This document shows, piece after piece, positions 3,168 to 47,055 of a stretch of 47,206 nucleotides of DNA. The stretch comes from Craspedostauros australis. Taxonomy: Eukaryota. The stretch is from positions 1 through 47,206 of the forward strand of contig JALAGF010000931.1 of the NCBI GenBank assembly GCA_030167865.1, in the 5' to 3' direction. The translations under genes and the position numbers were made by a program. The notes below the pieces were generated by a model that was not told where the DNA came from, did not search any database, and worked only from the letters and a program-made list of their open reading frames with translations. How positions within the stretch are numbered: the first letter of the stretch is position 1; the number at the start of each line of letters is the position of its first letter.

Positions 3168-3361
3168 CAGCACACGGCATTTCAAAACACCGCATGATGT
3201 AGACTAGAGGCATTAAAAGCAGTTAAGCAATGGACTCTTTATTGCGCAATCATTGTTGTTCTGCGAGTGTGGTATTGGAGGAAGCATCGCAATGAGCATT
3301 GTGCCTTGTGGAAAGAGCATGTACTGCTACAGCACTTGCTCTGCGCATGAGCGCGATTTCG

Positions 3362-10179: not shown

Positions 10180-11469
10180 ATGAAGGAACAGACAAGGTTG
10201 CGAGAAGACCGACCCAGACGCTCCACCAGAGCCAAGGATTCGATGAGGGCTGCATCCGCTTCGCAGAGATCCTGCCATCTGCCGTCCTTCTTTTTGGGAG
10301 CATCCTGCTGCCTGCCGTTGCTGCTGTGGCAGTGGTTCGGCGGCATGCTGCTCGTCAGTGATCAGTCCCTGCAAGCCATGCATACTGCCATGACGCACGT
10401 GGAGGATGGATCATCGACGCCCGTGTCCGCGACCAACGGCACCTGCCAATCCATCCCCCTCACACCGCTGCAGCATTGCATCAAGTACACGCAGCGCAAG
10501 ACGGATCACCTTCAGATCGAGAAGCAGGTCCTCACCTTGCCAGATCTGGATGATCCGCCATCCTTCGCCTTCGTCATGGGCAGCAACACTGAACTGCAGA
10601 AGGCAGAGAGCCTCTACGGATTTAACAACTACCAAATCGCCTTCGAAGGTGGCGTCACAAATCTGTGGATCCAAATTCTGCGGCATCACTTGTCGCAACA
10701 GCAACAGCAGAACCTGTTGGTGTTGGATGGCGGTATGAACACGGGGTTTTACACCACGCTGACGGCCCACATGGGCGTGCCGGTGCATGCCTTCGATCTG
10801 CAACGCGATTGCTTCGATGTCGTGCAGAAGATTCTGGAAAGCAACACGCCGCAGATGATGCAGCATGCGCATCTCTACAACATGGGATTGTCCAACGAGC
10901 CATCGATCATGACGGCCACGGAGGGCTGCTCGCCGAGCTACAATCTGATGGATCAAAAAGCACTTTTGCAGAGCACGTTGCCCGGTGGCAATTCCAAGAT
11001 CCACCAGGTCCCCGTCGTCTCCATCGATCTCTTCCTCGACCAGCTGCCCCAGACGACCGACGAGTCCATCATCCCCATCGTCAAATTGGACATTGAGGGG
11101 GCCGAAACCAACGCGCTCAAGGGATTCGTGCGTCATCTTCCAGCCTGCCACAACATCATCCTCGAATTCTCCGAGAAATTCACATCGCGTTTCACCAGAC
11201 CCGTCAACGCCTACCGCCAGTTCCACCGATTGCAGCGCGAAGGATTCGAGGCCTACATGCTCTTCGCCTACTCCATCCCCGCCGATAAGAGACGCGACGC
11301 CGGCTACTTGCAGGGCACCGGCTTGGCACCCGTCGACAAGCATCCCATCACGCGAGCGCCCGTTCCTGATGATTTCCGAATCGTGTGGCGAGTCACGAAT
11401 TGGGCTGATCTCAACAAGAAGGCGTGTCGGGTGGCTTGCAATCTTTGGTTCCACCGCGTCCACGACTGA
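10180..11469 (+). CDS. FkbM-family (Methyltransf_21-like) SAM-dependent methyltransferase, type II membrane (429 aa)
   Basis: ATG at 10180 (MKEQTRL) and a TM anchor. VLDGGMNTGFYT, VHAFDLQ, LYNMGLS, VSIDLFL, IVKLDIEGAE and IILEF are typical FkbM motifs. Confidence 0.85.
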   Translation: MKEQTRLREDRPRRSTRAKDSMRAASASQRSCHLPSFFLGASCCLPLLLWQWFGGMLLVSDQSLQAMHTAMTHVEDGSSTPVSATNGTCQSIPLTPLQHCIKYTQRKTDHLQIEKQVLTLPDLDDPPSFAFVMGSNTELQKAESLYGFNNYQIAFEGGVTNLWIQILRHHLSQQQQQNLLVLDGGMNTGFYTTLTAHMGVPVHAFDLQRDCFDVVQKILESNTPQMMQHAHLYNMGLSNEPSIMTATEGCSPSYNLMDQKALLQSTLPGGNSKIHQVPVVSIDLFLDQLPQTTDESIIPIVKLDIEGAETNALKGFVRHLPACHNIILEFSEKFTSRFTRPVNAYRQFHRLQREGFEAYMLFAYSIPADKRRDAGYLQGTGLAPVDKHPITRAPVPDDFRIVWRVTNWADLNKKACRVACNLWFHRVHD

Positions 11470-11733
11470 AAAATGGTGTCATCGCAAGAGTGACACCACC
11501 CATCAACGACGAATCTTCTTCTTCGCATCAAAGAACAAATCAATGTGAAGCGAAGCGGCTTGATGTGGGTTCCCACCCATGATCATGTGATGCAAGTACA
11601 TGCACGGTCATGTGGATTTCATGCAAAACAAACACAATCGTCATAAAAAGAACAACAGCACACTCCAACTCGAACTCCAACTCGAACTCGAACGATACAC
11701 ACGCACGTGTCATAGCAGCATCCATAGAGAGTC

Positions 11734-27024: not shown

Positions 27025-27445
27025 GACATACCAGTGTGGATTTTCTACAAAACTGTGCGCCACGGCGTCATCATCACGACAACATCAATGATCTCAGCAA
27101 ACACCGCGAGACCCGACCATCCAAGCTTGTTATCCTTGCGTATCAAGCCGCAAATGCTATGGTATGTGCGCATATAATCTGTTTCTCTACTGTTATCTAC
27201 TGCCATGCATGCACTCGTACCCATGTTGTGAGTTTGTATAATTACGCGTATGCGCTGATCCGGCAAACAGGAAACGAAGACACTTTGGATGCCATGCCTT
27301 TGTTCATTGCTCTCTGTGTTTGCCTCTCCACATTCAAATTCATTTTCGTATTCGTGCTCATGCTCATCTGTTGCATGCACCTTTGCTTTTGTTTTTGCTT
27401 TTACTCTGGCATGTGCCTTCACCTCCGCACTGCCCACTTGCCAAC

Positions 27446-30400
27446 TCAGGTGCGGCGCTGGGAGGTGCCGGTGTGGCGGACGGACTCGTCGGCACGGAAC
27501 TGCTTCTTGGACAGGTCGATGAAGATCTGCTCGAGGCTCATCTGCGCAACGGAGTAAAACTTGATATGGTGCCTCCTCTTGTTCTTCTCCAGGACATCGA
27601 AGATGGTCGCCAGTTGCTTGATGCTCTGGGAGGTAGCGATGCCGCCGCTGCCATCCTCAAGGAATGGGACCTTCAGCTTGAAGTTGTACGGCAGGGATTC
27701 GTAGACCGTGGCATCCATGCCGAGCGATCGCAGCAACCGCACGACACTGTTTTGGGATTGCTCGGGTGCGTCGCGGTCCAACGCAATCTCCACGAAGTAG
27801 CTCTTGCAGAAGCGCTGCTGCAACCGATCAAGGTCTCCTGTTGCAACGAGCTCGCCATCGATCATGATACCGATCCTTGTGGCAAGCTCTTCCGCCTCGT
27901 CCATGTAATGCGTCGAGAACAGGATGGCTGGAAGCTTGTACTCTTCGTTGACGAGATCAGGCTTGAGTGCGCTCCACACCAGATGACGAGCGCCGGGGTC
28001 AAGGCCTGTCGTGCATTCATCCACAAGCATCGCGGTCGGGTACCCGACCATCGCAATGCCAAGGGAAAGGCGACGCTTGTATCCACCGGACAGATCTGTG
28101 GAGTACTTCTCCATGTGCTTGGTGAGGCCCAGCAAGCGCGCGACGGCCTCGATGTGCTCCTGGGTGACGTCGCTGTCCCAGTCCAGGCCACGGATGCGAG
28201 CGTAAAACTCGAGGTGCTGCTCCACCGTCAGGCCTTGGAAGAGAGAGTCGTACTGGGGGCACCAGGAGATGTTGCTGCGTTCGAAGATGTGATCGACGCC
28301 CCTGTCCTCGGCGGAAAAGCCCCTGCCGTCAATGCTGGCGCTACCATTCTCCGGAGTGTAGGTGCCAGCCAGGACAGACATGAGGGTCGTCTTCCCAGCT
28401 CCTGCTCATGGTTAAAATCACAAAAAGGAATGGTGAAATGATCATGCAGTGAATCGAAGCGAAGCGAAATACAAGAGTTCGTGTGGGTAAAGGGGTGAGC
28501 TGACAAGTCAGTAGGCATGCAAAGTGAAAGTCGATGCCATGAAACATACGCCCATGGCAACCGTGGTACACACTAGTAGCCATCCAAGCATCAGCATCGG
28601 CAACAGCAGAAGACCAAGCAGCAGACGTACCGTTGGGCCCCAGGAGGACGTAGATCTCATTCCTCTTGATTCCGAAACTCACGCCCTTGATTGCGCGCTT
28701 GATGACGTGGTCATCCTCATCATCCTCAACTTCGCCTTCCTCGGAAAGGTCGACCTCGAAGACCTTCACAATGCCTCGGGAGTAGATCCCGTCACCACTG
28801 TCGAGAGATCTTTGCTTCTCAGCGAGGACGTCCTCATCGTGGATGGGCACCGGAACAGCGTTGGCCTTGTCTTCTTCGGCCAGCTTCGTGATCTCCGGCT
28901 TCGTCGTGGTGAGGCGGTACAGGTAGATCCATTCCGCAGTACCAATGACGAACATGCAGATGATGACGACGATGACGCGCGATTCAAACTCGAAGACGTC
29001 AGAGTACGTCAAATCGTCGTCGTCGAACTTGGTCGAAACGTCGACGATCGCACCGAGGCCACGCTGGAATGCGACGGGAGGGATGATGTTGAGGAAGTCT
29101 CCCACGATCAACAGGGTGTCTTCGCCGCCGTCAACGAGTTGGTACGCAAGGTTCCATGCCGTGTAGGGCACGGAGATGCCGGCGAAGTAGATGGACGGGA
29201 ACCAACCCTTGGCATCGTCGAAGTCCTTCGTGATCAGCTTCTTCGAGATGATGAGTCCCATGGGGGTCGCGGAGTAGGCGTAGAGCAGGAGAAGGATCAC
29301 CGTCGCCAACCACCGACCGGCGTTGCCAAAGATCACGGTCTCGAAGGAAAGGCCGAGGACAATGAGGATGACGAAGAATGGGAGGAAACTCGTGATGCAT
29401 TTGTAGAACGTGACGCCGAGGCACACTGTCCACTCGTTCACGCCGCCGACGCGGAACAACGAAATGATGTTGTTCGCCTTGTACGTCAGGATGTCGATCA
29501 TGGAGAAGACCATTCCCGTGAAGCCGTAGACCAACGCGATGGGGATGAGGAGCGAGTCCAGACGGAAGTCCTCCTCTGAATCATATGGAACCTGCTGGAG
29601 GTTGATGCCGAGGCTGGTGTCATTGTTGCCCAGCCTTCCGAAGTTCGCCAGCATCATGAGGTTAGTTCCGATTTGAGTTGCAAAGCCGGTGATGTCGTTG
29701 TTGTACTCCAGGGTGTTGGTGTCCGCGAGGTAACCGCCCAGCACAGGCATGGCATCGTGATACCCAGCAAACGACGTTGGTGCGTCGGTCAGCACGATAT
29801 CGTCCATGTTCAAGTCGGTTGTGTTCATGTCGAGCCCGAAAAATTCGCTCGTCTTCCCAGACAAAAGCTGAGACGAGATCGGAATCGGGTCAGGCTCGAC
29901 GCGTTCAATCGCATCCGATTCGCCGACCAGGTAGACCGCGACAAGACCACCGACCATGTACAACAATGGCAAGGTAACGTTGAGAACGATGGCCTCCGGT
30001 TGCTTCCAGGCATCCTGCATGGCGAACTTGGCAACGATGAAGAACTTGTCCCAGAACGAGAGACGATGTTTGACTTGGTTGTTGGCCCACACCTTGGAGA
30101 GGAATGATTGGCGTTCGCCAGCTTCTTCCAAGTCGAGCTCAAGCCGTTCGTTGTCGTTGTCATCGTCACCATCGTCACTTGTGTCGCTGGATTCCTCTTC
30201 CTTCCCGGTCGCGAGGAAGACCTGTTCCAACGTGGTGAGTTCCACCTCGATGTTCCTCGCCCCTTCGGATTCCAACCAGGACAGCATGGATGGGAAGGAT
30301 GGCTCCGTCCCGTGCGACAGGCTCCACTTGAACGTTCCTGGCCTTTCGCTGGTGGCCCTCGTGGCATCTTCGATGATGCGCGTCACATCGAGATCGTGGC

Positions 30401-31358
30401 GCGAATCGAAGCGGAGGGAGTACCCGACGCCGAAATGGTGCTTCAGGAACAGGGTCGTGCCGGACGTGACGATGCGTCCCTTCTTGAGGATGGCGACTCG
30501 GTCGCTAAGCAGATCGACTTCTTCGAGATGGTGCGAGCAGAGGATGATGCTGCGGTCCTTCTTCGCCTCGATGATCATGTCCCAGATGCCACGGCGGTTG
30601 TACGGATCAACGCCGGCGGTGGGTTCGTCGAGGAAGACGATTTCTGGATTGCCGAGCAAGGAGAGCGCGATGCAGACCTTGCGCTTCATTCCGCCGGAAT
30701 ACGTCTTGACTGGCTTGTCGCTGTCCTCGCTTGAGGTGAAGGCGATCTGGTCGATCAGACGCTGCGCTTCAGCATCGATCGCTTCGTCCAAGGATTGACC
30801 TGGTTCCATCGGGATGTCGCCACGAAGGCCAGCAAAGAGCTGCAAAGTTTCGCGGCAGGTCTCGTCTCCCAGCAGATTGTTGTGCTGCGGGCACACACCG
30901 ATCTTACCACGGATGGCTTCGCTGCTGCCGTTTGGCTGCAAGTCGACCTTGCCATCGTGGAGGTTGTAACTGAGTTGGCCGGCCTGCAAGCGCTCTTCGC
31001 CCGAAAGGATCCGGATGGTCGTCGACTTTCCGGCTCCGTTGTGACCAAGCAACCCGAGGACAGAGCCACGCGACACGTCGAGGTCGAGACCGTTCAAGAC
31101 CTCGACTGGAGCTGTCTTCTTGCACATGGGGCTTGCGTAGGTGTGCATGAGCCCTCGGACCTTCAGCAGGACTTCGCTGTCGCGTGGCAATGGTTCGAAG
31201 TTCGCTGCATCGGACTGTGCAGCGGCAGCATTGTCACCGTCATGGCCGCTGCTTCCGTTGGAATCGGTGTCGCCGCCGCGGAGAATGGTCAGAAACGCCA
31301 GGCGAAGATCAGGCGAGGTCCAGACGACGATGATGATGCAGTAGAGAATCACTCCGCA
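27446..31358 (-). CDS. ABCA: ABCA-family transporter, 3' part (NBD1-TMD2-NBD2), separated from its 5' part by the retrotransposon; intron 28630-28402
   Basis: NBD1: GHNGAGKST, YSGGMKRK, VFLDEPTAG. NBD2: GPNG|AGKTT is rebuilt across a GT-AG intron (GTACGT...TTAACCATGAGCAG), followed by LSGGYKRR and LVDECTTG. C-terminal YSVAQMSLEQIF is ABCA-typical. Confidence 0.92.
31342..31358. repeat. Left target-site duplication TAGAGAATCACTCCGCA (17 bp)
   Basis: Identical to 40197-40213. Confidence 0.95.
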
Positions 31359-31495
31359 CAATTTTTGAAAGGACCGAAAAATTCTTGAAAAAATTGTCGC
31401 AATAAAAGACACGATTAAAAATAGAAGACAGCAACAAAACAACAAAAGACAACTAGCAACAACACGACGAAAAGAAGACGACGAAGACGACCAAG

Positions 31496-34177
31496 ATGAC
31501 GAGCAAAGCTATCCAAACACCGCTTGAAGCCTACATTAGGACAATGGCAGCGAAGAAAGCAGAGCAGGACGAACAAAGGGCGAGGAATAAGGAAGGCGCA
31601 GGGAAAGAAAGTGGCGAAAAGGAGGAAGGAACGGAGGAGACAGAGGAGAATGACCGGAGGAAGGAGGGAAGCAAAGGGAACGCAGGATGCGCAGCAGGAG
31701 AGAAGTGCCTATGCAAAAGCAAAGCAAAGGCAGAGCTACGGTGCGCAGCATGCGGCGATCCAGTGCACGTGACGTGCAGTGTGGCTATAGTACCAACAGG
31801 CCAACAGCAGGTACAGAAGGGGTTTGGGGCAGTATGCATGTTGTGTGTGGAAGAGCACCAACTGCGCGTGTCGAGAGCCTCGAAGAAAAGGAGCTACATC
31901 ACCGGAGCACAAGTGCGAATGGGACAGATCCTACGCAACCGATGGGACAAGATGGAAAAGGAGAAGAAGAGGGGAGACGAAGAGGCAAAGGACATGACAG
32001 ATGGGGGAGCACAACAGAGCAAGGACGACCAGGGCGCGGAGGAAGAAGGCAAAGGAGGAGAGGAAGAAGAGGAGGAAAACAGGGACGGAGGGAACAAGGG
32101 ACAAGGAGACATCGTGGCTCAGCAACAAGAGGACGACACAGACACCGCAAAGGATGCAGAAGTGCAGCAAAATAGAAAAAGGGCAGAAACGAGCCCAAGG
32201 CACAGAAGCAGAACTGCGCAGCCAAGCAAGAGGCTGAACACCGACGACGCGGAACAAGAAGGGGAAGACGAACAACCAACCATGGACATAGAGGACAGCG
32301 GATCGGAAGGCGTAGCTAAGTTCATCTATGCAGGCCCAGGAGAAATGGAAATCAGTGAGGATGAGAAAACACAAGTGGGCAATAACTCCAACATGGATGA
32401 GAGGCAACATGAGATAGTACACCCGGAGGTCAATGTGATCACAAGACAACAAGACATCAAGTACTGTGACCTACAGCTGATGGTTAACGGAGGGGCAGGA
32501 TCGGGCAACGTGAAGGTTGCGATGGACGCCGTGATAGGGTCATGCAAGGACTTTTTACGAGCCATCCAACAAGTCAATTCCACAGCCAAATTGCTACCGT
32601 GGGACCTGAAAGCGGACTACACCAGGATCCATGCATTGGAAGATTTTCCTAACGACATGACTACGCTCAAGAAATTCTTCAAGGGTGCGAAGGCACTGTA
32701 TGGAGCGGTGAGGGAGAAGGCGTACTACAAGGTGCGAATCGAATGCGAAGGAAAAGTAAGTGAGATCACGGATGAGCTCGCAGACTTTTTCGCAGTAGAC
32801 AAAGGGAGATTCACGGTAGCCAAAATACAGGCGGCATCGACAACAACTATTGGATGGCTTCTGTACTCGACAAGGCAGATCGGAGTGGACGAGCTGGAAG
32901 AAGAGCTCACAAGACTCGCAATGCGACCGATAGCAACAAATTGGAAGCGCATCTCTGACGGAACTAAATTTGATCCGGACAGAAACACCGAGAACGATCC
33001 AAGGGCACTACACGTGGAAACGGCCACGGACGATAAAGATGTGGTAACAGAGACACTGATGCACTACTACAGCACGAAGTCGACGACCTTCCCGCTGGGA
33101 ATCCGAATGAGGATGGTAACACCGCTGGCAGGAATAGTCAACACGGACGTGAGATCGGGGTGGTTCAAGCTACGAAGTCGGCAGGGTAAATGGTGCCAAC
33201 AAGCACAAGCAGTGACATCCTACGACATCATACAAGAAACGCTGGACACGGTACCGTATGGCAAGAAACAAACGCTTCGGAACATGATCATGAAGATCAA
33301 AGCAACAACAGGCAATACCAACACGCCACTGTTCACATCGGTCAACACGAAGTGGAGAGGCGCAGGTTACGTGTTCCAATTCCACCCTGAGAAAGAAATG
33401 GAGGCGAAGATGGTAGTCAAAGGCTTGTTGGTCCGGCTAGTAGCAGAACACGGTGATGTCATCAAGACGCTCTTTTCGTCGATGGCAATCACAGAAGCCA
33501 AGACCATGAGATGGGACCCAGGGACAAGCCGAGTGATTTCAGAGAAAGACAAAGCAGTGGAAGCGGCATTGGAAGGGGATGACGACATGCATTTCGTGCA
33601 AACAGAAGAGAACTTAGAAATTGAACAGGAACACCGGGAATGTGACATGGTGCCAGAAAGAGACTACGGCGACAACGACACTATCCCCTCGCTTCGAAAT
33701 CAAGGAGAATGGAGAAAGATTGCAACGGAACAAGAGCGGCAGAAAGTTGCGGCAAGGAATGCGGCACTGCAGGACAGCGGATCCACGGGGACGAAATCCA
33801 AGAAAACGACGCGAACCGAAGGAACGAGCAAAAGGTTGGTGTCAATTGAGGCAAAGATAGCGGAGATACTGGAGACAAGGACGCAACGATCAGCTTTGTC
33901 GACATTGTCTGGGAGCACGAGAAGGTCCAAAGACACGATGACGAAGGAGGTGAAGGAGATGAGGAAGCAGATGGAGCAGATGCAGGCGATGATGGCAGCA
34001 ACGATGGAGGAAAACAGAAAGCTCAAAGAGAATTCGAGCAGTGCTCCAAGAGAGCAGGGAGTAAGGCCACCGGAGGCCCAGCGTACAGATAAGGACAATC
34101 CGAAGGTTGACAGCCTGAGGGAGCCACGCGACATAACCGAAGCAGGCGACGCGCGAGCGAAGCCTGCGGAAGGTTGA
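31496..34177 (+). CDS. Retrotransposon ORF1 (893 aa): PHD-like zinc finger, acidic region, globular core, C-terminal coiled coil
   Basis: Intact ORF directly upstream of the RT ORF. C-x5-C...C-x2-C-x4-H-x2-C-x19-C-x2-C at 31688-31846. EVKEMRKQMEQMQAMM coiled coil. Confidence 0.88.
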   Translation: MTSKAIQTPLEAYIRTMAAKKAEQDEQRARNKEGAGKESGEKEEGTEETEENDRRKEGSKGNAGCAAGEKCLCKSKAKAELRCAACGDPVHVTCSVAIVPTGQQQVQKGFGAVCMLCVEEHQLRVSRASKKRSYITGAQVRMGQILRNRWDKMEKEKKRGDEEAKDMTDGGAQQSKDDQGAEEEGKGGEEEEEENRDGGNKGQGDIVAQQQEDDTDTAKDAEVQQNRKRAETSPRHRSRTAQPSKRLNTDDAEQEGEDEQPTMDIEDSGSEGVAKFIYAGPGEMEISEDEKTQVGNNSNMDERQHEIVHPEVNVITRQQDIKYCDLQLMVNGGAGSGNVKVAMDAVIGSCKDFLRAIQQVNSTAKLLPWDLKADYTRIHALEDFPNDMTTLKKFFKGAKALYGAVREKAYYKVRIECEGKVSEITDELADFFAVDKGRFTVAKIQAASTTTIGWLLYSTRQIGVDELEEELTRLAMRPIATNWKRISDGTKFDPDRNTENDPRALHVETATDDKDVVTETLMHYYSTKSTTFPLGIRMRMVTPLAGIVNTDVRSGWFKLRSRQGKWCQQAQAVTSYDIIQETLDTVPYGKKQTLRNMIMKIKATTGNTNTPLFTSVNTKWRGAGYVFQFHPEKEMEAKMVVKGLLVRLVAEHGDVIKTLFSSMAITEAKTMRWDPGTSRVISEKDKAVEAALEGDDDMHFVQTEENLEIEQEHRECDMVPERDYGDNDTIPSLRNQGEWRKIATEQERQKVAARNAALQDSGSTGTKSKKTTRTEGTSKRLVSIEAKIAEILETRTQRSALSTLSGSTRRSKDTMTKEVKEMRKQMEQMQAMMAATMEENRKLKENSSSAPREQGVRPPEAQRTDKDNPKVDSLREPRDITEAGDARAKPAEG

Positions 34178-34316
34178 ACACAGAGGGCAGGGCCAACCGT
34201 TGGTGGAAGCACAACAACAGAGCCCGAGCCAGAATGCGCCGGTGGCAAAAAAGGATTTACCGCATCCAAAATGCCACGGAGAGGAGGGAGACGAGAGAGA
34301 TGAGACAGGGGATATT

Positions 34317-37300
34317 ATGATGAGGAAGGCAGAGGGGAGAATGAGAATCGGGATGCAGAACTTTGGAGGTTTGAGACGAACGAAAGGAAACATCGATGAA
34401 GGCTTGAAAAGGTGGATGAATGAAGGCGAGTTCGATGTATTCGGAGTAACCGAAGTGAATGTGGATTGGAGAGGAGTGAGAGAAGAGGACAGCCTAAAGA
34501 GCCGAACCAAAGAATGGTGGCCATCAGGAACAACACAAGTAACAACTGCCAACAATGAGAATGAAGAGACCGTCAAGAGCAAACAATGGGGAGGCACAGC
34601 AATCATCAGTAGGTTCCAAGCAGCAGTGCGAATGATCAAATCAGGACAAGATGAGACGAAGCTGGGACGGTGGACGTGGCAACTCTACAGAGGTGCAAAC
34701 CAACAAAGACTACGAGTAGTCGTAGCGTACAGACCATGTCGACCGAGAACAAAAGGGGTCCTCAACACATATGCGCAACACAGAAGGTACTACAATGAGA
34801 AAGGAACGGATGTGGAACCAAGACACAAGATACTAGAGGATTTGACTGCAAAGGTGCAACAGTGGAGAAAGGAAGGAGAACATGTAGTAGTATTAATGGA
34901 CTGCAATGAAGACACAGGATCTACAAAGATGCAGGAGTTCTTGGACAACAGCGGACTACTCAATGCGATGACAAAGGCGGAAACCGACGCAAGCGCGACT
35001 GCAACACACAGGCTCGGAAAGAAGCCGATCGACGGAATCTTCGTGACCAAATCAATTCGAGTGGCTCGGGCAGGCATGACGCAGTGGGACGAAGGGATCC
35101 AAGAGAGATGCGCTGATCATAGGTGCTTGTGGATTGAGGTGAGCATGCAAGCTGTGCTAGGACAGACGATGCCACCATTACGGAGAGCAGTAGCACGAAG
35201 AGTGAAAACTGAAGACCCACGCATAGTTCAAAAATTCAATGCAGCATATGAGGCGTATCTGAAGAGTCACAACGCAAGAAACCGAGCGATAAGGCTGGAG
35301 AGAGAAGCAGAGGGTCAGTGGAACAAGAAGATGGAGGAGGAGGCGGAGGCGTTAGACAAGATACGGGTACAAGGAATCTGGGCAGCGGACAAACGCTGCA
35401 GGAAGCTTCGAATGGGAGGGATACCGTATTCGGACGAGTACAAACAGATAGAGGCAAGAATTGGCTTATGGAACAACATAGCGAGGCAAGCAAGAGGAAG
35501 GAAGGTGTCTACGTCTATGCTGCGACGGCTGGCAAGGAGAGCACAAGAGAAACGACGATTAGCGGAGCTACGACGAATGCAAGAAGAAGAGATACGTCAC
35601 GAGCAAAAAGCGGCATACGAAGCACTCAAGACGTTCAGGGGGAGAGCGACGGAATCCAGAGCGAACTGGTTGGAAACTATCGCGGCGTCAAGGGCGGAAC
35701 AGGAGGAAAAGAGAAAGGGGTCACGAACAGACAGGAAGAGAAGAACAACGCAACGAGGGAGCTGCACGGCATCGCAACTAAGACAACTACGAGGAAGGGA
35801 ACAAACCAAGGAAATGTATCGACGGATAAGACGAGCTGCAGGTAACGACAGTCCAGGAGGCATATCGATGGTAATAGCGCCGGACCAACAAGGGGTGTGG
35901 CAGGAGCGAACGGAGCGCGACGACATAGAACGTGGTTGCATGGAAGAGAATCAACGAAGATTCCGGCAGACCGAAGATACTCCATTCATGCATGGGGAGC
36001 TAGCACGCGACTTCGGGTACCTCGGATTGACAACGGCAGCCCAAGACACATTGAGGGGATGTTATACAGCATCAAAATGGGTGGACGAAGGCGCGAGAAA
36101 GCTCATCCAAGGGCTGCGGTCAGTGGCAAATACCAAAATACCAGCAGGCATGACAACTGATGAGTTTCAATCAGGCTGGGCGAAGTGCAAGGAGGATACA
36201 TCGGCAGGACCGTCAGGGTTGCACTTTGGCCACTTCAAAGCCATAGCGCAGCACCGGGGCAATTCGGAGTTTGAAGCATGCATGTCATCTGTAGCGATGA
36301 AGTCAGGGTACGCCTATGAAAGATGGAAGCAAGGAACTGATGTGGAGCTGATGAAAAAAGCGAACAGCTACAGGGTGGACAAGTTGCGTACCATCGTGCT
36401 GTTCGAAGCCGACTTCAACTTTTCGAATAAAGCCATCGGGAGAAAGGCGGCAGCACAGGCAGAGCGGCAAGGCGGATTCGCGGAAGAACAATACGGGAGC
36501 CGAAAAGGGCACAAGGCAGTGGAGCATGCATTGAACAAGCAGCTAACACTCGACTGGATGCGGCAAACCAGGACACCAGGGATGCTCTGCTCCAACGATC
36601 TCAAGAGCTGTTATGACAGAATCACGCATTCAGTGGCGTCGATCGGGCTGCAGAGGCAAGGTATTGCCGAAACCGAGGTACGGAGCATGTTCACTACACT
36701 GCAGCAACTCGAGCATTATATACGGACGGTATATGGCGACTCGAGGACGGCGTACAGCGGACGGGATTCGGCCAAACCGATGCAGGGAATATACCAAGGC
36801 AATGGAGCAGGGCCGGTCATATGGGCGGTGATATCGTCGCCTATGTTGGATATCATGCGGCAGGAAGATCACACGGCGAGGTTTGTGACGGCGGCTGGCC
36901 AAGAAAAGGTGACCATCGTCGGGTACGCATTCGTTGACGACACTGACTTGGTAGTCAATGCTAGGCAGAACGAAGGAATCACAGAGGCAGTCCAGCGCAT
37001 GCAAGCGAGTGTGGATCAATGGGAGCAATTGGTACGAGCAACAGGAGGAGCATTGGTGGTGGAGAAAAGCATGTGGTGGGCCATCGATTTTGTGTGGCAG
37101 CAGAACGGCGAGTGGAGGTATGCACACAACGACGAAGTGGAGGCGGCGATATCAATGCGAGGCAACAGCAAGCAGCGCCAGAGCATGCCTCGCAGTAGCG
37201 TCAACGAGGCGTTTGAGACATTAGGAGTCAAGTTAGCACCAGATGGAAATGGGCAAGCGATCTACGAGGCGATCAAAGGGAAAGCGGAAGCATGGGCTGA

Positions 37301-39974
37301 GAAAGTGCGGACCAAGCGCATCCGGAAACAAGACGCTACAGCGGCGATGAACTCGGTGTTGCTGAAAAAGCTGGAGTACGTGCTACCGGTGGCGCAGCTG
37401 ACGGAGGAAGAATGCGGGAAGGTCATGCAACCGGTGTGGAAAGTGATGATGTCGAAAATGGGGTACAACAAAGGATTCCCAAGAGCGATGATACATGCCG
37501 GAGCCAGTCAGCTGGGAGCCGACGTTCACAGCTTACATACTACCCAGGTCGTGGAGCATGTGATGATGATTTTGGAGCACGGAGGACGGGGTACCATGAC
37601 CGGACGGCTGGTACGAGGAACGATAGAGGCGATGAAAGTCGAGATTGGTACAGGGCGCCCGCTATTCGAGTTACACTATGACAAGTGGAAATACTTGGCG
37701 ACGCCGTGCTGGATGAAAACAGTATGGAAAGAAGCTCAGGAGTATGGCATTCAAATACAGGAGAAGACGAAAGGGGCGAGCAAAGTGCATGATCATGACA
37801 AGTGGTTCATGGACGAGGCGTGGCAAGTGGGGTATTCAAACAGTCAATTGCAGAGGATTAACAGGTGCAGGATCTTGATGCGAGTAATGACGGTCGAGGA
37901 TGTACAAGGAGGGGATGAAGTGTTCCATGTGCGGACGAGCAGAGGCAGATGGCGAGGGCGACAAGATATTAATTGGCCACGGCAGGGCGAGGTTCCCAAG
38001 CAAGATTGGGCCCTGTGGAGGAAAGCAGTGAAGGCAGTAAGGCAGAAGAGCAACAATCTGGAGCAAGCAGGACAACGACGTTGGTATGCAATATGGGCAC
38101 CCAGCAAAGGAGCTGTGTGGACCAGGACAACAGAGGGCGAATGGCAGGAGTGGAGAGCCCAGGCTACGGACAGTGCGGGCTTGCAAGGGTTTCACCAAAC
38201 GGGACGGAAGGTGCAGGCACAACGCATCCAAGGCCGAGAAGTGAAGCTGCGGGAAAAAGGTGGTAAAGTGTACGTGGTGGAGACCGGTCGCATATGTGAG
38301 CAAGAAGGGGAAGAGGCAGAGAGTGCGACAACAAGCAATCTTGGCGAGTGGATAGAGGCTGTACGCGAAGGCCGGGCAGTCATCAGCACCGACGGATCGT
38401 TCAAGGACGGGGTGAGTGCGGCAGCGTTCTCTTTGAATGTGAGCGGGCGACGGGAAGGATGCATAAGGATGTCCGGGCCAGTACCAGGGCGGCCAGAAGT
38501 GCAAAGTGCATACCGAGCGGAGTTGGGCGGCATTTACAGGGCCATGAAAATGGTTCGGCGAGTGCTCGAGGAACAACAAGAGTCGTGGCCAAAGACAGCG
38601 GCAATCGTGGTCGCGTGCGACAATAAAATGGCCGGAGTGCATGCGGTGACGTTCGACCGTGACGTACCGACAAGAGTTCAGCACTTCGACCTGTTGCGGG
38701 CCATACGGCACGAGCAAAGACGAATGCCGGTAGCGATGGTGTACAAGCACGTGTACGGTCACCAGCTTGAGCGGGAACGAGGGGTCGAAGTTGACGAGTT
38801 CTCGTTCTGGAATGACGACGTCGATAAGATGGCGGGAGCGGCCAGACAAACAATGGCACCGGGAAGAGATGCAGAGTGGAGCAAGGAGGAGTGGTCAGTC
38901 TGGATTGATGGCAAGAAGGTGTGCACGCGGGCGAAAGCGGAGCTGCGGGCGCATGTGGAAAAGCAAAAAACAGAGCGATGGCAGCGCCAGACACGGAAGC
39001 TCGACTCGGCCGACATCGCCGATATTGATGGCGAAGCTATACGAGCGGCTATGGGCGGCATCAGCCAGAGCCGGAAAAGATGGGTGGTGAAACATGCAGC
39101 GCACTTCGGACCAGTCGGGAGGAACATGCATAAATGGAAGTTCTGGAGCGATGGGCTGTGTCCAGTGTGCAAGTCTGAAGAAGAGACGACGGAGCATGTG
39201 GTGAGATGCCAGCATCCGGCCGCAGTCCAGGTGCGCAATGCGGCAATGAAAGAATGGGAGGAGGAAATGCGAGCGTCGGCTGGCAATCCGCATATGGTAC
39301 AAGAGATGGGGCGGCAGCTTCGGATGTGGATGGACGGAAGGGAAGCAGAGCCGCAAGGATGGTCAGAAGTACAGCAGGCCGTAGCGGCGCAGGCACGGCT
39401 AGGATGGGACAAGATGATGTTGGGAAGGTGGTCAGTACGGTGGCGCATGATCCATGAAAGTACAGTGCGGCGAACGAAGTCGAGTCGACCACCAGTCAGC
39501 TGGGTTGGGAAGGCCATCAGAGGGTTGTGGGAAGTGCGATGGAAAGCATGGGTAGCGCGGAACCAGGCGCTGCATGAGGATGAGAAGTGGAAAAAACAGA
39601 CGGAACAAATGAGACGTGCACGAATGGCAGTGGACGCAGAATGGAGGAAAGGGGGTCGAGGGCTGTTGGCCGCGGATGCAGGGCTTATGGCTAACAACAG
39701 CCGACAGGAGGTTGCAAACATGACAGCTGATGAACAATTGCGGTGGGTGCAACATGTCCAAGCGGCGCGAGCTGTGGCAGTAGCAACCCGGAGACAATCG
39801 GCAAGGCAGTGCGGGAGCGTGACGGACGCAGAAGGAGCTGGGGTAGCGCGGCGGCGACGAACGGAGGCGCGAGCGACGAGTGGGCGATTAGCAGGGAAAC
39901 GAGGAGGGTTGAGCAGCGGCCCGGACAGGGACTCCAGACGCAAGCGAGCGAGAAGGGGACGCTGGAATATATGA
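34317..39974 (+). CDS. Retrotransposon ORF2 (1,885 aa from the first ATG): APE endonuclease, reverse transcriptase, RNase H, CCHC zinc finger
   Basis: APE: QNFGG, GVTEVN, MDCNED, PIDGIF, ADHR. RT: SAGPSG, LRTIVL, QYGSR, NDLKSCYDRI, GIYQGNGAGP, AFVDDTDL, LGV. RNase H: STDGS, RAELGG, ACDN, HVYGH, NDDVDKMA. Zinc finger: CPVC...TEHVVRC. Confidence 0.95.
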   Translation: MMRKAEGRMRIGMQNFGGLRRTKGNIDEGLKRWMNEGEFDVFGVTEVNVDWRGVREEDSLKSRTKEWWPSGTTQVTTANNENEETVKSKQWGGTAIISRFQAAVRMIKSGQDETKLGRWTWQLYRGANQQRLRVVVAYRPCRPRTKGVLNTYAQHRRYYNEKGTDVEPRHKILEDLTAKVQQWRKEGEHVVVLMDCNEDTGSTKMQEFLDNSGLLNAMTKAETDASATATHRLGKKPIDGIFVTKSIRVARAGMTQWDEGIQERCADHRCLWIEVSMQAVLGQTMPPLRRAVARRVKTEDPRIVQKFNAAYEAYLKSHNARNRAIRLEREAEGQWNKKMEEEAEALDKIRVQGIWAADKRCRKLRMGGIPYSDEYKQIEARIGLWNNIARQARGRKVSTSMLRRLARRAQEKRRLAELRRMQEEEIRHEQKAAYEALKTFRGRATESRANWLETIAASRAEQEEKRKGSRTDRKRRTTQRGSCTASQLRQLRGREQTKEMYRRIRRAAGNDSPGGISMVIAPDQQGVWQERTERDDIERGCMEENQRRFRQTEDTPFMHGELARDFGYLGLTTAAQDTLRGCYTASKWVDEGARKLIQGLRSVANTKIPAGMTTDEFQSGWAKCKEDTSAGPSGLHFGHFKAIAQHRGNSEFEACMSSVAMKSGYAYERWKQGTDVELMKKANSYRVDKLRTIVLFEADFNFSNKAIGRKAAAQAERQGGFAEEQYGSRKGHKAVEHALNKQLTLDWMRQTRTPGMLCSNDLKSCYDRITHSVASIGLQRQGIAETEVRSMFTTLQQLEHYIRTVYGDSRTAYSGRDSAKPMQGIYQGNGAGPVIWAVISSPMLDIMRQEDHTARFVTAAGQEKVTIVGYAFVDDTDLVVNARQNEGITEAVQRMQASVDQWEQLVRATGGALVVEKSMWWAIDFVWQQNGEWRYAHNDEVEAAISMRGNSKQRQSMPRSSVNEAFETLGVKLAPDGNGQAIYEAIKGKAEAWAEKVRTKRIRKQDATAAMNSVLLKKLEYVLPVAQLTEEECGKVMQPVWKVMMSKMGYNKGFPRAMIHAGASQLGADVHSLHTTQVVEHVMMILEHGGRGTMTGRLVRGTIEAMKVEIGTGRPLFELHYDKWKYLATPCWMKTVWKEAQEYGIQIQEKTKGASKVHDHDKWFMDEAWQVGYSNSQLQRINRCRILMRVMTVEDVQGGDEVFHVRTSRGRWRGRQDINWPRQGEVPKQDWALWRKAVKAVRQKSNNLEQAGQRRWYAIWAPSKGAVWTRTTEGEWQEWRAQATDSAGLQGFHQTGRKVQAQRIQGREVKLREKGGKVYVVETGRICEQEGEEAESATTSNLGEWIEAVREGRAVISTDGSFKDGVSAAAFSLNVSGRREGCIRMSGPVPGRPEVQSAYRAELGGIYRAMKMVRRVLEEQQESWPKTAAIVVACDNKMAGVHAVTFDRDVPTRVQHFDLLRAIRHEQRRMPVAMVYKHVYGHQLERERGVEVDEFSFWNDDVDKMAGAARQTMAPGRDAEWSKEEWSVWIDGKKVCTRAKAELRAHVEKQKTERWQRQTRKLDSADIADIDGEAIRAAMGGISQSRKRWVVKHAAHFGPVGRNMHKWKFWSDGLCPVCKSEEETTEHVVRCQHPAAVQVRNAAMKEWEEEMRASAGNPHMVQEMGRQLRMWMDGREAEPQGWSEVQQAVAAQARLGWDKMMLGRWSVRWRMIHESTVRRTKSSRPPVSWVGKAIRGLWEVRWKAWVARNQALHEDEKWKKQTEQMRRARMAVDAEWRKGGRGLLAADAGLMANNSRQEVANMTADEQLRWVQHVQAARAVAVATRRQSARQCGSVTDAEGAGVARRRRTEARATSGRLAGKRGGLSSGPDRDSRRKRARRGRWNI

Positions 39975-40196
39975 GTTCATGACAGCAGGTGAAGTGCACG
40001 GCGGACTTCGGTCGGGTGCCCAGTGCGGTATGTTTTATGGCCCAAGGAGATGGCAATCCGAGGAAGACAAGGACGTGAGAGATCCTTGTAAAGGTCGTTC
40101 TGGCGCTGTCGGCCAATAGGGCTCGCAGTATGCAGGCGACGGTAAAGCCTTCGAGGCAACCTTGGTAACAAGGGATAATCAGTGAGTTATTATTAT

Positions 40197-40213
40197 TAGA
40201 GAATCACTCCGCA
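40197..40213. repeat. Right target-site duplication TAGAGAATCACTCCGCA (17 bp; the first 2 nt overlap the TTA tail register)
   Basis: Identical to 31342-31358. Confidence 0.95.
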
Positions 40214-41623
40214 GATGCTAGCGATGATGCTGCCGATGAGGCCGCTGTCGACGATCTCGCTGGCGGAGGTGATGCCCGTGTTGTAACCCTCAACGTCGTA
40301 CTTGTAGTAGATCAAGCTGTAGTTGATGATGCTGATGAAGGGTGACAACACGGATAGGATGGAGAGAACCTCCTGCGGGGCATCGATGGCGATCATGACG
40401 ACCGTCACGATGGTGGAAAGGAGGAACGTGAGGAATGGGAGGTTCTGCGCCATCTCCTCCTTGGCGGAGAACAGGGTGACCATGACCACGAAGCCGAAGA
40501 ACTGCAACAGACTGAGGTAATGGGAGATGAAGATCAGGACGATGCTCGATTTGGGGTAGAGCTTCCAGCCGACCGAGACAGCGGTGAAAACAATCGCGGT
40601 GAAGATCCCGTTGATGGACATGTAGAGGTACCACTGCAAGACGTAAGTCCGCAGACGAACGCCAGCACGCACGAATGCCAAGTGGACGTCCTGGACCTTC
40701 TCGGCCAACATGGGTCCGATGAGATGACCTGCAGTGATGGCGAGAGTAAGAGCCGTGAGGATGCCGATGGTCATGCCGATGTACTCGTCCGTATCATCCG
40801 GAGCGGTCTCCTCGAAGATGGTTGGAATCGATCGGATCTTATCGATGGGGAAAGGGAGGGAGGAGAATTCGTCGTTGGCGTCGCCGTTGTTGGCAATGGC
40901 GTTGGATGCCGTCACGTTCCACAAAGCGGCCTGAACCCAGTACTGGGCGCCGGCGATCTTGTTCGTGAACGGGGCGAGCGACTCGTCGCCTCCAAAATAG
41001 ATCGTGGTCAGAGCATCCAAATTGGACGGGGAGAGGTCGCCGAGGCTGTTGCTTGAGTCGATGCCGTCAATGGCAGTGGCGTTAACGTCGAAGTACACGC
41101 AGAGCTTCTCGGCTTTGTCGGCGTCGCTGATGGTGTCCTCGCAAAAGTCAGCAAACGATGTCTTGTTGCCGTTGAAGGCAGACTCGACTTCGAAGACGGT
41201 TCGGATGGTGTCGATGCCGTTGATGTACTTCGCGGCCTCCTCGAGCATAGCCGGGTGGTTGCTGGCACCGTAGATCTTCTCGGGCATGGACCAGTCCTTG
41301 GCATCGTGGATGACAAAGTTGCCGGATCTGGTGCCTTCGTCGGGATCATCGTAGCCAAGGTAAAACCCGATGGTGTACAGCATCAAGATGGCTGCTGGGA
41401 GGAATGTCTTGGCCCACCAGACGGGCAACTTCTTGCGATCTCGTTTGAGGTTGCGACGCATGAGGATGAACGCCTGTTGCAGGTCGGAGGGAACGGGAGT
41501 GCGCAAGGATGCGGATGGAGTGGATGCGGACTTGACGGAGGACTTGGCTGAGGCCGCAACCTCTTCGACCTCAATGCCGCTGCCACTGTCATCGTTGGAT
41601 TTCACACGGAGATGGCTGTCCAT
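40197..41623 (-). CDS. ABCA: ABCA-family transporter, 5' part (N-terminal TM, extracellular domain, TMD1), truncated by a TAA created at the insertion junction
   Basis: ATG at 41623. QQAFILMRRNLKRDRK followed by a TM helix is ABCA-like, and several TM helices follow. It ends ...IIASICGVIL*, and the same CGVIL continues as CGVILYCIII from 31358 downward. Confidence 0.88.
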
Positions 41624-44305
41624 GGTAGATGTCTTCACCTTGTTGTTGCTGTTACTGTTACTGTGGTCGGTGGCGTGGATGTGATGAGCTTGTTGCCTGC
41701 TATCTTGTTGATTTGTTGATTTGCGTTCCTGGTCTCTGTTTGCGTTTTCCGCCTTGAGGTTGTATCAGGTACGAGGGTGTCAGGAGTGGTGACAAACACG
41801 GCCAGTTGTTCTTGTCCGTTGTTTGGTTGGTTGGTTGTCTTATATGCCGTTCTGTTCTGGTGCTTGTGTGCGTGTTTATGATTGTGTGTGTGTGTGTGTT
41901 CGGTCTTCAGATTTGCTTTTTATGAGGAGACTGAGTTCGCTGATCAATGAAACAGCAACGACACGAGATGGGCAACAAACAGGTTGAGGTGTGCAGAGAG
42001 AGGCACGTCATGGGACAGGATGTGCATGAGTGTGTGTGGGTATCGTCCATGCGAGCTACGACCTGCGGTAGGCACGGTATCCTAGTTGGAATACCTCTGT
42101 GATCTTGTTCAAGTCGTGTGCCGACAACATCAAAGCGGCTCCATCGCGGCTTCGTGATGAGGAGATGTGATCTGGCATTTGCGAGTTCGTGTTGATTTGC
42201 GGCTTTCTTCGTTGCGGTCACACGTGACTTCCACAGACGCGGTGTCGTCGCAATGACTTTTTCTCCCTCCTGACCGTTCCGCGATTTGCGAACGGAAAAT
42301 TCGCCAATGGAGTATTCGCAGATATCTTGCGATAACGAGGTAACTCTTCACGCGTTTTGGTAGGTATGCAATCATAGTAGGTATGGCATGTTGGTACATA
42401 CCCGTACCTTGCAGAGCAGCGCAGCGCAGTGCAGAGTGCAAACTTATCGGCAAGGCTTGGAGGCGGAATCCATCGATCTCTCACACATGGTTCATATACG
42501 TGGACACACTCTCACACACACGCGCGTAATGCAAGTGTCCATCATCAACTAGCTGTGGAGTACAACAACGTACCAGACACGCACAGTGCCAATACTGGTC
42601 GGCCGAAGAGCACGCAGAGCAGAAGATGTCCTTTGTTCTAATACGTTCCCCCACCTTCCACGATCCACACAGGTGGATGCGGATGAGCCTGAGCAATCTT
42701 CGATTGATGCTTTGGTGCTTGTACGACTTAAATCTCGTCGTCTATTCTGTCCGACCGAGACTGATGATCAAAATCGAAGATCCCAGGGACTACACGTACC
42801 ATGCTACTAAAAGTATGTACATAGGTCGTACCAATACAAACAGAGATCAAGAGATCGTGGTGGCTTCAGATGGATCAAAGCAGATCGAGAGAGGGCAAGC
42901 AACGCATCAATCCATCCAAGGGTCTCTCCAATCGTGAAGAGGTGTGGCGACACCGCCTGGCAGTCCGCAGTGATCCACGAATCTCCCCCTTCGCAGCGCC
43001 CATCGTCTCTCTACAGAGTAGATACTATACTATTGACGACACCATGGCAATGCAAGTGCCACCTACTCATGGTTCTGAAGTCCAAGGCGGCTTGCCTCTG
43101 TTCCTCTTCCTCTGTGCCCAGGCGGCATGAAAGATCCTTTCTGGTGCTGCTACTCCGGTACCACGGTGCTATTCGCCATCACATTCGCAGGCGCGATGCC
43201 TGAGATCAAAAGAGAACGGAAAGATATCCAAGATTTTGCGAATGATCGACAAGAACTGACAACGAGCGTCACTGTGAGTCGTGCTGAAGGTCCAGGAACG
43301 GATTGGAAGAACACTGCGCGCCAAATGTGCTCAGGGCGCACTTCTTCCAGCCACATTCTCTCAGCGACGTGCATGCCAGCATCGCCTTCGTGTGACCAAA
43401 CATAGCCGAAGGCGCCGTTAGGTGTGCCCAGACCGATTGTACCGAAGGAAGCCATGGAGAAGTCTTCCCTCATCGATCTTGGCCAAAGCCAACGTCGCTA
43501 CCACCTCCCATTCCCACCAACGCGCAAGCGAAGCCATCAGCGATGTTGATGCTTGATGCCCGCAGATCTCGGGTATCCCTTTGTGTGATTCGGATTTGTT
43601 GAGAACAGTTCACTTCCAGAACAAACAGTTACATCGATGTCACACAATCCAAGAGAGCTGCTCGGGTCTGGAAAGAGCCTCTTGGGTGGCGCACACCCAT
43701 GTGGAGATAGATAGAGGGCAGAGTGCTATACATGTAGAGTAGAATAGGGTAGAGTAGACTCCAGCAAGCCTCTCTCGATTTTGGTATGCTTGTGGGGTAC
43801 GACTACGAGGACGCGTCTTGCTAACAATAGCTTGCATGCCCCATGGCCTCGTTTTCCTCTTTGGCGATGAGTTGAGAATTGCAATCCACCCTGGACGTTT
43901 CTGTCACCACAATTCGCACGAGCTGTGGTGCCCAGGGCATTCTGTATTCTAGACACTCTACGTAGCCTACGGACAGGTTGCACGGCCAGGCGATACTGGT
44001 GACATTCAGTATCAATGCAAATCGTGTGCGAACCACAACCACTTCCGCATCGCTTGCGCAATGATCTTCACAGCACTCTTACTAGAATTCCAAACAAGCG
44101 ATTGCCACCAGTGACCCCCCATCTCCACTCGGCCCATGGAAACACGGCGCTACTTGTCCTCCCAAATACAGCTACATGGAACAAACTACCAGTGGAGTAA
44201 TACATGCATTGTTTTAATACTCCGTTGCAGCAATGGCAATTAGCCGTTGCACCTGGCCTGTTCCAGAAAGAGGGAATGCTAGAGCCTGCGTGCCACCATA
44301 ACGCC

Positions 44306-47037: not shown

Positions 47038-47055
47038 NNNNNNNNNNNNNNNNNN
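47038..47055. other. Assembly gap (18 N)
   Basis: Run of N. Confidence 1.

Follow-up and report, generated by a model that had tools for sequence, protein, structure and literature searches.

A full-length retrotransposon encoding endonuclease, reverse transcriptase and RNase H lies antisense in an ABCA-type transporter gene

Results

A retrotransposon within an ABCA-type gene

We analysed a stretch of 47,206 nt from Craspedostauros australis (contig JALAGF010000931.1, forward strand), hereafter the window, in whose numbering all coordinates are given. On its plus strand lies a full-length, uninterrupted non-long-terminal-repeat retrotransposon, a long interspersed nuclear element (LINE) with an endonuclease, a reverse transcriptase (RT) and RNase H, which stands antisense in a coding exon of an ABCA-type transporter gene encoded on the minus strand. 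The element comprises two open reading frames (ORFs) between untranslated regions (UTRs) and is bracketed by two copies of a target-site duplication, beyond which the host gene, with its two nucleotide-binding domains (NBD1 and NBD2), continues on either side. The features of the element and of the split gene, each with its evidence in brackets, are as follows (aa, amino acid positions or lengths; MFE, minimum free energy).

27446-31358, minus strand: downstream part of the split gene, with NBD1, the second membrane domain, NBD2 and an ABCA1-like R1 region (Pfam)
31342-31358, no strand: left copy of the target-site duplication, 17 bp, TAGAGAATCACTCCGCA (exact repeat of 40197-40213)
31359-31495, plus strand: 5' UTR, 137 nt, A-rich, starting CAATTTTTGAAAGGACCG (sequence)
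31496-34177, plus strand: ORF1, 893 aa (ATG-initiated open frame, standard code)
31688-31858, plus strand: PHD-like Cys/His cluster, ORF1 aa 65-121 (weak Pfam matches: C1_1, E 0.05; PHD, E 0.29)
32423-33655, plus strand: conserved central domain, ORF1 aa about 310-720 (blastp, alignment A4, predicted structure)
34178-34316, plus strand: spacer between ORF1 and ORF2, 139 nt (stop-to-stop frames)
34317-39974, plus strand: ORF2, 1885 aa, with endonuclease, RT, RNase H and CCHC finger in that order (ATG-initiated open frame, standard code)
34317-35216, plus strand: apurinic-like endonuclease (APE) of EEP fold, ORF2 aa 1-300 (Pfam below cut-off, 3teb profile match, invariant residues)
36114-37346, plus strand: RT core with YAFVDD motif, ORF2 aa 600-1010 (Pfam RVT_1, alignment A6)
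38274-38906, plus strand: RNase H, ORF2 aa 1320-1530 (alignment A5, predicted structure, Foldseek)
39111-39209, plus strand: CCHC zinc finger with ligands C1615, C1618, H1627 and C1631 (Pfam zf-RVT below cut-off, invariant ligands)
39975-40186, plus strand: 3' UTR, 212 nt before the tail (sequence)
40141-40192, plus strand: candidate family-wide 3' terminal module, running into the tail (covariance model R1, 24.3 bits, E 0.058)
40147-40157, plus strand: predicted hairpin A, GCCT-TCG-AGGC (MFE and centroid folds)
40160-40173, plus strand: predicted hairpin B, CCTTG-GTAA-CAAGG (MFE and centroid folds)
40176-40186, plus strand: TAATCAGTGAG motif (motif common to relatives)
40187-40198, plus strand: (TTA)4 tail, whose last TA (40197-40198) is common to the duplication (sequence)
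40197-40213, no strand: right copy of the target-site duplication, 17 bp (exact repeat of 31342-31358)
40197-41764, minus strand: upstream part of the split gene, with the first membrane domain (Pfam ABC2_membrane_3)

Element boundaries and integrity

The two copies of TAGAGAATCACTCCGCA form the sole exact 17-nt direct repeat bracketing the element, and because they stand at both of its ends the element body is 31359-40196 (8838 bp), the interval that a preliminary description of this DNA had given with both termini set by the duplication. The 3' end reads ...TAATCAGTGAG(TTA)4, and the microhomology between tail and target is real, as the right duplication copy starts with the very TA that ends the tail. 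The preliminary description had likewise reported a (TTA)4 tail in place of poly(A), sharing TA with the start of the target, and two open ORFs; both reports hold, the ORFs spanning 893 and 1885 aa under the standard code. It was right in kind: this is a LINE with RNase H that is intact, has exact ends and shows microhomology.

Long terminal repeats are absent, the longest direct repeat within 31000-40600 being 31 nt long at 71% identity. The features of an APE-type LINE are found: an N-terminal endonuclease, a downstream RT with an F/YxDD motif, no terminal repeats, a 3' tail and a flanking duplication. The sense strand is much richer in purines than most of the window, with a GC skew of +0.16 to +0.32 and an AT skew of +0.25 to +0.47 across 31001-40000. 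In relatives of the element (see below), the 5' termini, defined as the points where near-identical copies stop matching, begin ACAATTTTAAGGTTCGG (loci L038 and L039) and CACAATTCTAATGTTCG (L017 and L027); their resemblance to the window's CAATTTTTGAAAGGACCG suggests that the window copy is not 5'-truncated. The length of ORF2 is also in line with the 1850-1990 aa of relatives, and these sequence comparisons support the view that the copy is full length. In kind the element is ordinary; as a copy it is unusually clean and informative.

The host gene and the age of the insertion

In both flanks, the minus strand carries open frames whose ends or starts coincide exactly with the limits of the element. 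Once a script had removed the element together with one duplication copy, a single stop-free frame of 1522 codons ran across the junction, the other two frames across the restored junction measuring 35 and 17 codons. A 17-mer repeat at the exact ends of the element, the removal of which restores a frame of this length, is far beyond chance. The upstream piece matches Pfam ABC2_membrane_3 (E 6.1e-12, profile positions 123-335 of 347) up to 5 residues before the break, and the downstream piece matches ABC_tran twice (E 3.2e-32 and 2.7e-19), ABC2_membrane_3 (E 8.8e-6) and R1_ABCA1 (E 9.4e-5), with the ABCA1-like R1 region and NBD2 lying in the next frame (27446-28405). The restored frame encodes a membrane domain, an NBD, a second membrane domain and a second NBD, which is the layout of an ABCA full transporter, and the protein language-model neighbours of the host transporter are eukaryotic full-size ABCA transporters of 1540-1700 aa. 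Within the first membrane domain, it is the last membrane helix that the break interrupts.

Since the antisense tail reads an in-frame TAA (40196-40198), the protein made from the filled allele would stop at the junction. No stop has been gained since the insertion in either gene half or in the element itself and, because the duplication is perfect and neither the gene halves nor the element have decayed, the insertion appears to be very young. It may be heterozygous, strain-specific or acquired in culture.

Independent data came from one public run, X1 (13 million letters, share 0.06, of a kind guessed as RNA). Its contigs match 31223-31377 and 40182-41870 without difference and so reach 19 and 15 nt into the element, which gives modest support for the junctions being real. 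They contain no cover inside the element (31378-40181) and no empty-site joint, and are uninformative on expression or on an empty allele. We also considered whether the element might be spliced out of the host transcript; this was ruled out by eye, there being no in-register GT...AG pair within the duplication, and the contigs of the run, which hold no such joint, lend the idea no support either. As a separate observation, word depth in the run is 302 over the upstream ABCA half (40182-41870), in a contig that stops 15 nt inside the tail, and 5-12 over the downstream ABCA parts (27178-27879 and 31223-31377); one possible reading of the contrast is a transcript cut short at the antisense (TTA)n, with the proviso that contig depths cannot rank gene parts.

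Domains and translation of ORF2

Pfam recognises RVT_1 in the window's ORF2 at aa 681-903 (E 4.9e-7, 30.1 bits against a cut-off of 29.6), Exo_endo_phos at aa 30-253 (E 8.8e-4, 19.5 bits, under the cut-off of 24.5) and zf-RVT at aa 1599-1629 (E 0.0019, under cut-off). When ORF2 was aligned with 15 relatives (alignment A1, 16 sequences), the following residues proved invariant: in the endonuclease E46, D195, N197, D267 and H268, which we take to be the catalytic Glu, Asp/Asn and Asp-His of the APE family; in the RT D761 and V873-D874-D875 of the YAFVDD motif, with F872 in at least 90% of sequences; in the RNase H D1359, E1402, D1435, H1482 and D1503; and all four CCHC ligands. FVDD (F273-V274-D275-D276 in region numbering) is also invariant in the larger RT-core alignment A6 (42 sequences). 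Among solved structures, the A1 family profile, which covers the whole ORF2, gave only weak EEP matches, that to 3teb having E 4.1e-4. The catalytic residues that the preliminary description had read in APE, RT (FVDD) and RNase H are therefore present in the window and conserved among its relatives.

The RNase H required additional evidence, as Pfam gives no match, even at E ≤ 10, for aa 1320-1530 of the window's ORF2. PF00075 RNase_H matches 11 of the 23 aligned family members (alignment A5, best E 2.1e-6) and RVT_3 matches 2 of the 23, and among solved chains the family profile reaches E. coli RNase HI at no better than E 0.33. A predicted structure of the window segment (predicted local distance difference test, pLDDT, 86.0; predicted template-modelling score, pTM, 0.85) gave 246 Foldseek matches at E ≤ 0.001, led by Sulfolobus tokodaii RNase HI (4.7e-7), then E. 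coli RNase HI and then retroviral RNase H domains, all with probability 1.00. As relatives match PF00075 and the window model matches RNase HI folds, the identity of the domain is confirmed; the D-E-D-H-D set by which it was originally proposed is the one found invariant in A1, and the modelled fold agrees. RNase H precedes the CCHC finger, and the C-terminal region of ORF2 holds these two domains only.

A search of solved structures with the single ORF2 sequence gave no match at E ≤ 1, and the RT profile of 42 sequences found no reverse transcriptase at E ≤ 10 among solved chains, which we take to include L1 ORF2p, and one match that was unrelated.

ORF1 ends at 34177, and the ORF2 frame, which is the +1 frame, is free of stops from 34137 onwards, so that it opens 40 nt ahead of the ORF1 stop; its first ATG, at 34317, lies 139 nt past that stop, in another frame than ORF1. 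Frameshifting or reinitiation may be used for ORF2 translation. This ATG stands about 9 codons before a conserved RIGxQN motif, where relatives have about 40 residues. Overlap between the frames of ORF1 and ORF2, ranging from a few nt to about 100 nt, is seen in many relatives.

ORF1

ORF1 runs from a Cys/His cluster through an acidic low-complexity stretch and a conserved central domain to a charged C-terminus, and matches no Pfam family at a meaningful score. A blastp search with the central domain returned 39 rows at E ≤ 1e-3 from the upstream ORFs of 38 of the 80 relative loci (172 ORFs searched), with conservation over aa about 340-700. The model of this domain built from alignment A4 (22 sequences; pLDDT 85.3, pTM 0.77) consists of repeated beta-alpha-beta-beta-alpha-beta units. 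Foldseek found nothing for it at E ≤ 0.001; VIA-align placed the RRM of CFIm68 first (Z 7.0, root-mean-square deviation 3.5, 89 aligned, model residues 142-260), with other RRMs at Z 5.1-5.7 and ribosomal S6/ACT-like folds at Z of about 6 on model residues 6-138. On the strength of this model, the central domain is probably a tandem of ferredoxin-like/RRM-like folds and would probably bind RNA, in keeping with the usual role of LINE ORF1 proteins.

The Cys/His pattern of the window was found in 0 of 26 ORF1 N-termini of relatives (0-6 Cys each), and the cluster is on that account a peculiarity of the window element among the 27 ORF1s compared. It may represent a lineage-specific gain of a possible chromatin-reading finger.

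A large environmental lineage of relatives

A word-indexed search of about 5.8 billion protein clusters with ORF2 returned 29 relatives at E ≤ 0.001, mostly of 1850-1950 aa, the best being 35% identical over 96% of the query. Scanning metagenome contigs with the ORF2 alignment confirmed 446 of 454 candidate stretches, from which 80 loci were kept (ORF2 identity 27-43%); many metagenome contigs are 8-12 kb long, with an ORF1-like frame ahead of an ORF2 of about 1900 codons. With the RT-core profile from A6, the word-indexed search gave 645 clusters at E ≤ 0.001 among 8000 candidates; among the 120 matches listed, all lay below 1e-165 and the closest was 55% identical in the RT core. An exhaustive search of 1.84 billion representatives gave 2051 clusters at E ≤ 1e-30, 7448 at E ≤ 1e-10 and 14898 at E ≤ 0.001. 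Almost all of these relatives are without a name, cluster annotations reading only 'hypothetical protein' or 'exonuclease III'. From the cluster counts, the missing names and the lack of a match to a solved RT, we conclude that the lineage is large, mostly environmental and far from solved LINE RTs. The LINE lineage of which the window element is a member is very large and deeply divergent; its elements measure 8.6-9 kb, have an ORF2 of about 1900 aa and abound in the environmental sequence of eukaryotes.

Several subfamilies of relatives include copies at least 99% identical to one another, in which similarity stops at the same two points and the flanks differ (L008/L010/L011, 8.59 kb; L074/L075/L078, 9.0 kb; L020-L023; L036/L038/L039; L003/L004), a pattern that speaks for mobility of the lineage. 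No exact repeat of at least 9 nt, as a target-site duplication would leave, was found at any of 20 tail-bearing relative loci, perhaps because the contigs are too short or chimeric and the assembled flanks of repeats unreliable. Within the 47-kb window, blastn and tblastn searches for a second copy of the element returned the self match only. In one relative locus, positions 1-1889 of L039 are 98% identical to positions 583-2470 of L028 and abut a full-length copy (1889-10611), an arrangement that suggests nested or tandem insertions of related elements.

A conserved module at the 3' end

Downstream of ORF2, the motif TAATC-N2-4-TG-N1-2-TTA followed by an AT-rich microsatellite occurs in 20 of 31 loci, against an estimated chance expectation of about 0.01 sites per locus; these 31 are the loci with at least 300 nt after the stop among the 43 that include the ORF2 C-terminus. 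A 3' end made up of two hairpins, TAATCAGTGAG and TTA repeats is in this way common to relatives that are only about 30% identical in protein. The microsatellite varies by subfamily, comprising (TTA)n, (TA)n or TTAT/TTTA-type repeats. In all 20 of the TTA-tail loci, the 36 nt before the motif fold (MFE) to a hairpin with its 3' arm ending at the T of TAATC. Its stem differs between subfamilies (GTTAGG/CCTAAC, ATAGAT/ATCTAT, ACTAGTC/GACTAGT, AGTAGG/CCTACT and others), and its stability relative to shuffled sequences has a mean z of -2.0, with 14 of 21 sequences below -1.5. A second small hairpin (GYCU-loop-AGRC) is predicted just upstream in relatives.

An alignment of the 3' ends by MAFFT and RNAalifold recovered hairpin A alone and misaligned hairpin B, and was replaced by a covariance model (R1) of two helices built from 11 relatives. 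Across 81 sources (653 kb, both strands), R1 found 28 sites at E ≤ 1, none of them antisense and one of them in the window. In the resulting alignment, standard pairs occupy 90.5% of cells versus 76.5% after shuffling (the observed value was reached in 0 of 500 shuffles), pairing drops to 21-51% when partners are slid by 1-3 columns, and all 10 of the 10 pairs have at least one compensatory change on both sides. The 3' UTR and tail folded as one (39975-40198) are no more stable than shuffles (z -0.32), so that support is confined to the terminal module.

Among the subfamilies, loci L003/L004, L008/L010/L011, L022/L023, L054 and L060 keep the hairpin and TAATCCATGAG and differ in their terminal repeats, which are TTATTTATTT, TTATATATAT, TTAAATTA and long (TTTA)n. 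As subfamilies keep the motif but differ in the AT-rich repeat, it appears that the tail unit evolves while the adjoining motif stays.

Discussion

Weighing the insertion and its mechanism

We put at about 85% the probability that this is a full-length, coding-intact, autonomous endonuclease-type LINE that inserted recently and antisense into an ABCA coding exon, neither the element nor the gene having decayed since. Several observations weigh against this interpretation or parts of it. No second copy lies in the window and no near-identical protein is public (best 35-36% for ORF2 and, among the matches listed, 55% for the RT core). The junction contigs of run X1 fall short of a 31-letter bridging criterion, and the strain sequenced there may equal that of the assembly. 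ORF2 has no obvious route of translation, given an ATG 139 nt downstream of the ORF1 stop and in another frame; the window's own endonuclease and zinc-finger Pfam scores lie below the curated cut-offs; and the fold matches of ORF1 are middling (best Z 7.0). At the 3' end, the window's match to R1 is weak (E 0.058), its last hairpin ends 3 nt earlier than in 20 relatives, and the pair counts come from an alignment fitted to R1, which favours the structure; the slid-partner controls and independent single-sequence folds agree with the module structure.

The anatomy of the element suggests how such an insertion could proceed within the established frame of target-primed reverse transcription. Element RNA would be bound by the ORF1 protein, through its RRM-like central domain, and by the ORF2 protein, which would recognise the conserved 3' module (two hairpins plus UAAUCAGUGAG) together with the (UUA)n tail. 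The N-terminal endonuclease would nick the bottom strand after ...TCTCTA, the terminal TA of the primer would pair with the UA at the tail end, and the RT, positioned by the two-hairpin/UAAUCANUGAG module, would copy the RNA. The template would be removed by the element's own RNase H, and a second nick 17 bp away would give rise to the 17-bp duplication. The order of events, the recognition of the 3' module by the RT, RNA binding by the ORF1 protein and present-day activity are all points that we infer from anatomy.

Affinities to known LINE clades

CRE elements lack an N-terminal APE and carry a restriction-like endonuclease downstream of the RT, an architecture from which the window element, with its N-terminal APE, departs. 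This bears on the Repbase Ambal clade, to which the preliminary description had likened the element, and membership of which we consider possible while inclining against it. In its favour, passages in the literature list Ambal as a non-LTR clade found only in 'protists' (PMC4438587) and report 'LINE/Ambal' as abundant in one diatom genome (PMC12803021); the window resembles a compact, protist-type eukaryote genome with long intron-poor ORFs; and an RT so far from mainstream LINE RTs, with no solved RT at E ≤ 10 and only the 14898 representative clusters at E ≤ 0.001, fits a separate, little-studied clade. However, RepeatMasker files Ambal under CRE ('CRE-Ambal', in a passage of PMC11572971), and if Ambal shares the CRE architecture, the APE-bearing window element does not fit Ambal. 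Excerpts of two further papers name Ambal in lists of clades (PMC5753468, PMC4455052), and in the excerpts mentioning Ambal that were at hand no definition or architecture of the clade was found.

The element does not have the poly(A) tail of L1: the tail is (TTA)4 here and (TTA)n, (TA)n or TTAT-type in relatives. LINEs of the I group, such as the Drosophila I factor, have two ORFs, an ORF2 composed of APE, RT and RNase H, a (TAA)n end and target-site duplications of variable length. The window element shares with the I factor two ORFs, the APE-RT-RNase H order, a trinucleotide-repeat 3' end and a target-site duplication, and its architecture would be closest to that of the I group. Unlike the I factor, it has (TTA)n on the sense strand, a much longer ORF2 of about 1900 aa, and an ORF1 with RRM-like domains and a PHD-like finger in place of CCHC knuckles. 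Lower-rank protein language-model neighbours of ORF2 combine RVT_1, Exo_endo_phos_2 and RNase_H, which we treat as a lead only.

Two other known systems invite comparison. In 'stringent' LINEs of the CR1/L2 type, such as eel UnaL2, the RT needs a conserved 3' stem-loop beside a short microsatellite tail. The window's two predicted hairpins, with their compensatory changes, similarly adjoin TAATCANTGAG and an AT-rich repeat and may serve in recognition by the RT; unlike CR1/L2 elements, which lack RNase H, the window element has one, and its tail units and motif are others. Plant and oomycete L1 elements with an added RNase H carry APE, RT and RNase H in one ORF2, the finger preceding RNase H in plant L1. 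The window element likewise has APE, RT and RNase H in one ORF2, plus a zf-RVT-type CCHC finger (a weak match), but in contrast to plant L1 its RNase H precedes the finger and its tail is (TTA)n rather than poly(A), and its RT profile matches no solved RT at E ≤ 10. Finally, the LINE clades LEC1-3 reported from Tara Oceans plankton comprise RTs known from marine environmental sequence only (PMC5029228). The family studied here resembles them in being dominated by unnamed environmental contigs, and it may be one of LEC1-3.

Present mobility and the possibility of a misassembly

The preliminary description had judged the family likely to be new and currently mobile, a reading that extends from one young copy. 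A different question is whether the copy is intact while its family is no longer mobile in this genome, the window holding a single recently dead or horizontally arrived copy. We think this unlikely. The absence of a second copy in 47 kb, the lack of any protein closer than 55% in the RT core among the matches listed (from about 15 billion public proteins) and the fact that the only run found has no contig inside the element would all fit it, but both ORFs are intact over 2778 codons with all catalytic residues present, the split host gene is undecayed, and the lack of close relatives among public sequences is explained by the absence of this genome from them. An assembly artefact, in which an element contig was chimerically joined into the gene, is highly improbable: the scaffolded nature of the assembly, evident from a gap of 18 N at 47038-47055, and the lack of read-level data spanning the junctions by at least 31 nt would allow for it, but a misjoin would not yield an exact 17-bp target duplication whose removal restores the host frame, nor would its joins coincide exactly with the canonical 5' end and 3' tail of the family, and the contigs of run X1 carry both junctions, over 19 and 15 nt, with no mismatch. 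A recent insertion of an intact, autonomous LINE is therefore the explanation that we retain.

The remainder of the window

Outside the element, the window is ordinary gene-dense eukaryotic DNA, with genes for an FAD-dependent oxidoreductase, an FkbM-type methyltransferase, trypsin-like proteases, a HORMA-like protein, a cyclophilin and a TauD/aldo-keto reductase fusion. It contains no other transposon, no Rfam family at gathering score and no tRNA gene. Three further observations concern single features, listed here.

1311-3167, plus strand: 618-codon open frame lacking both a Pfam family and similarity to the element, in a stretch whose AT skew of +0.31 to +0.39 is unusually high for the window
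11728-13704, plus strand: TauD/TfdA dioxygenase (E 1.2e-25) and aldo/keto reductase (E 1.6e-37) in one frame, an uncommon fusion
47038-47055: the 18 N mentioned above, an assembly gap near the window end

Significance

Outside model organisms it is rare to have a clean, intact LINE copy for which both ends and the duplication are present and the empty site can be reconstructed without ambiguity. The choice of a coding exon as target makes this insertion datable, as very young, and gives it a likely phenotypic effect in the form of a truncated ABCA transporter. We advance only tentatively, and with real doubt, the broader proposal that a protist LINE lineage, huge, spread over the globe and not properly described, has its RT guided by two hairpins, UAAUCANUGAG and (UUA)n, and that this copy is one of its live members. 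Were it true, a copy disrupting an ABCA gene in what seems to be a sequenced and culturable micro-eukaryote would make available a LINE that is naturally active and tractable, has a defined RNA recognition element and lies outside animals, plants and fungi.

At the level of the family, the contrast between 2051 clusters at E ≤ 1e-30 and almost no names suggests a major plankton retrotransposon lineage that is poorly catalogued in the resources searched. The family-wide 3' module with its compensatory changes is a concrete, testable candidate for the RNA element by which an RNase H-bearing LINE may choose its own transcript. The most useful points to emerge are thus a gene-disrupting and evidently very recent insertion, and a covarying 3' module across a very large environmental family.

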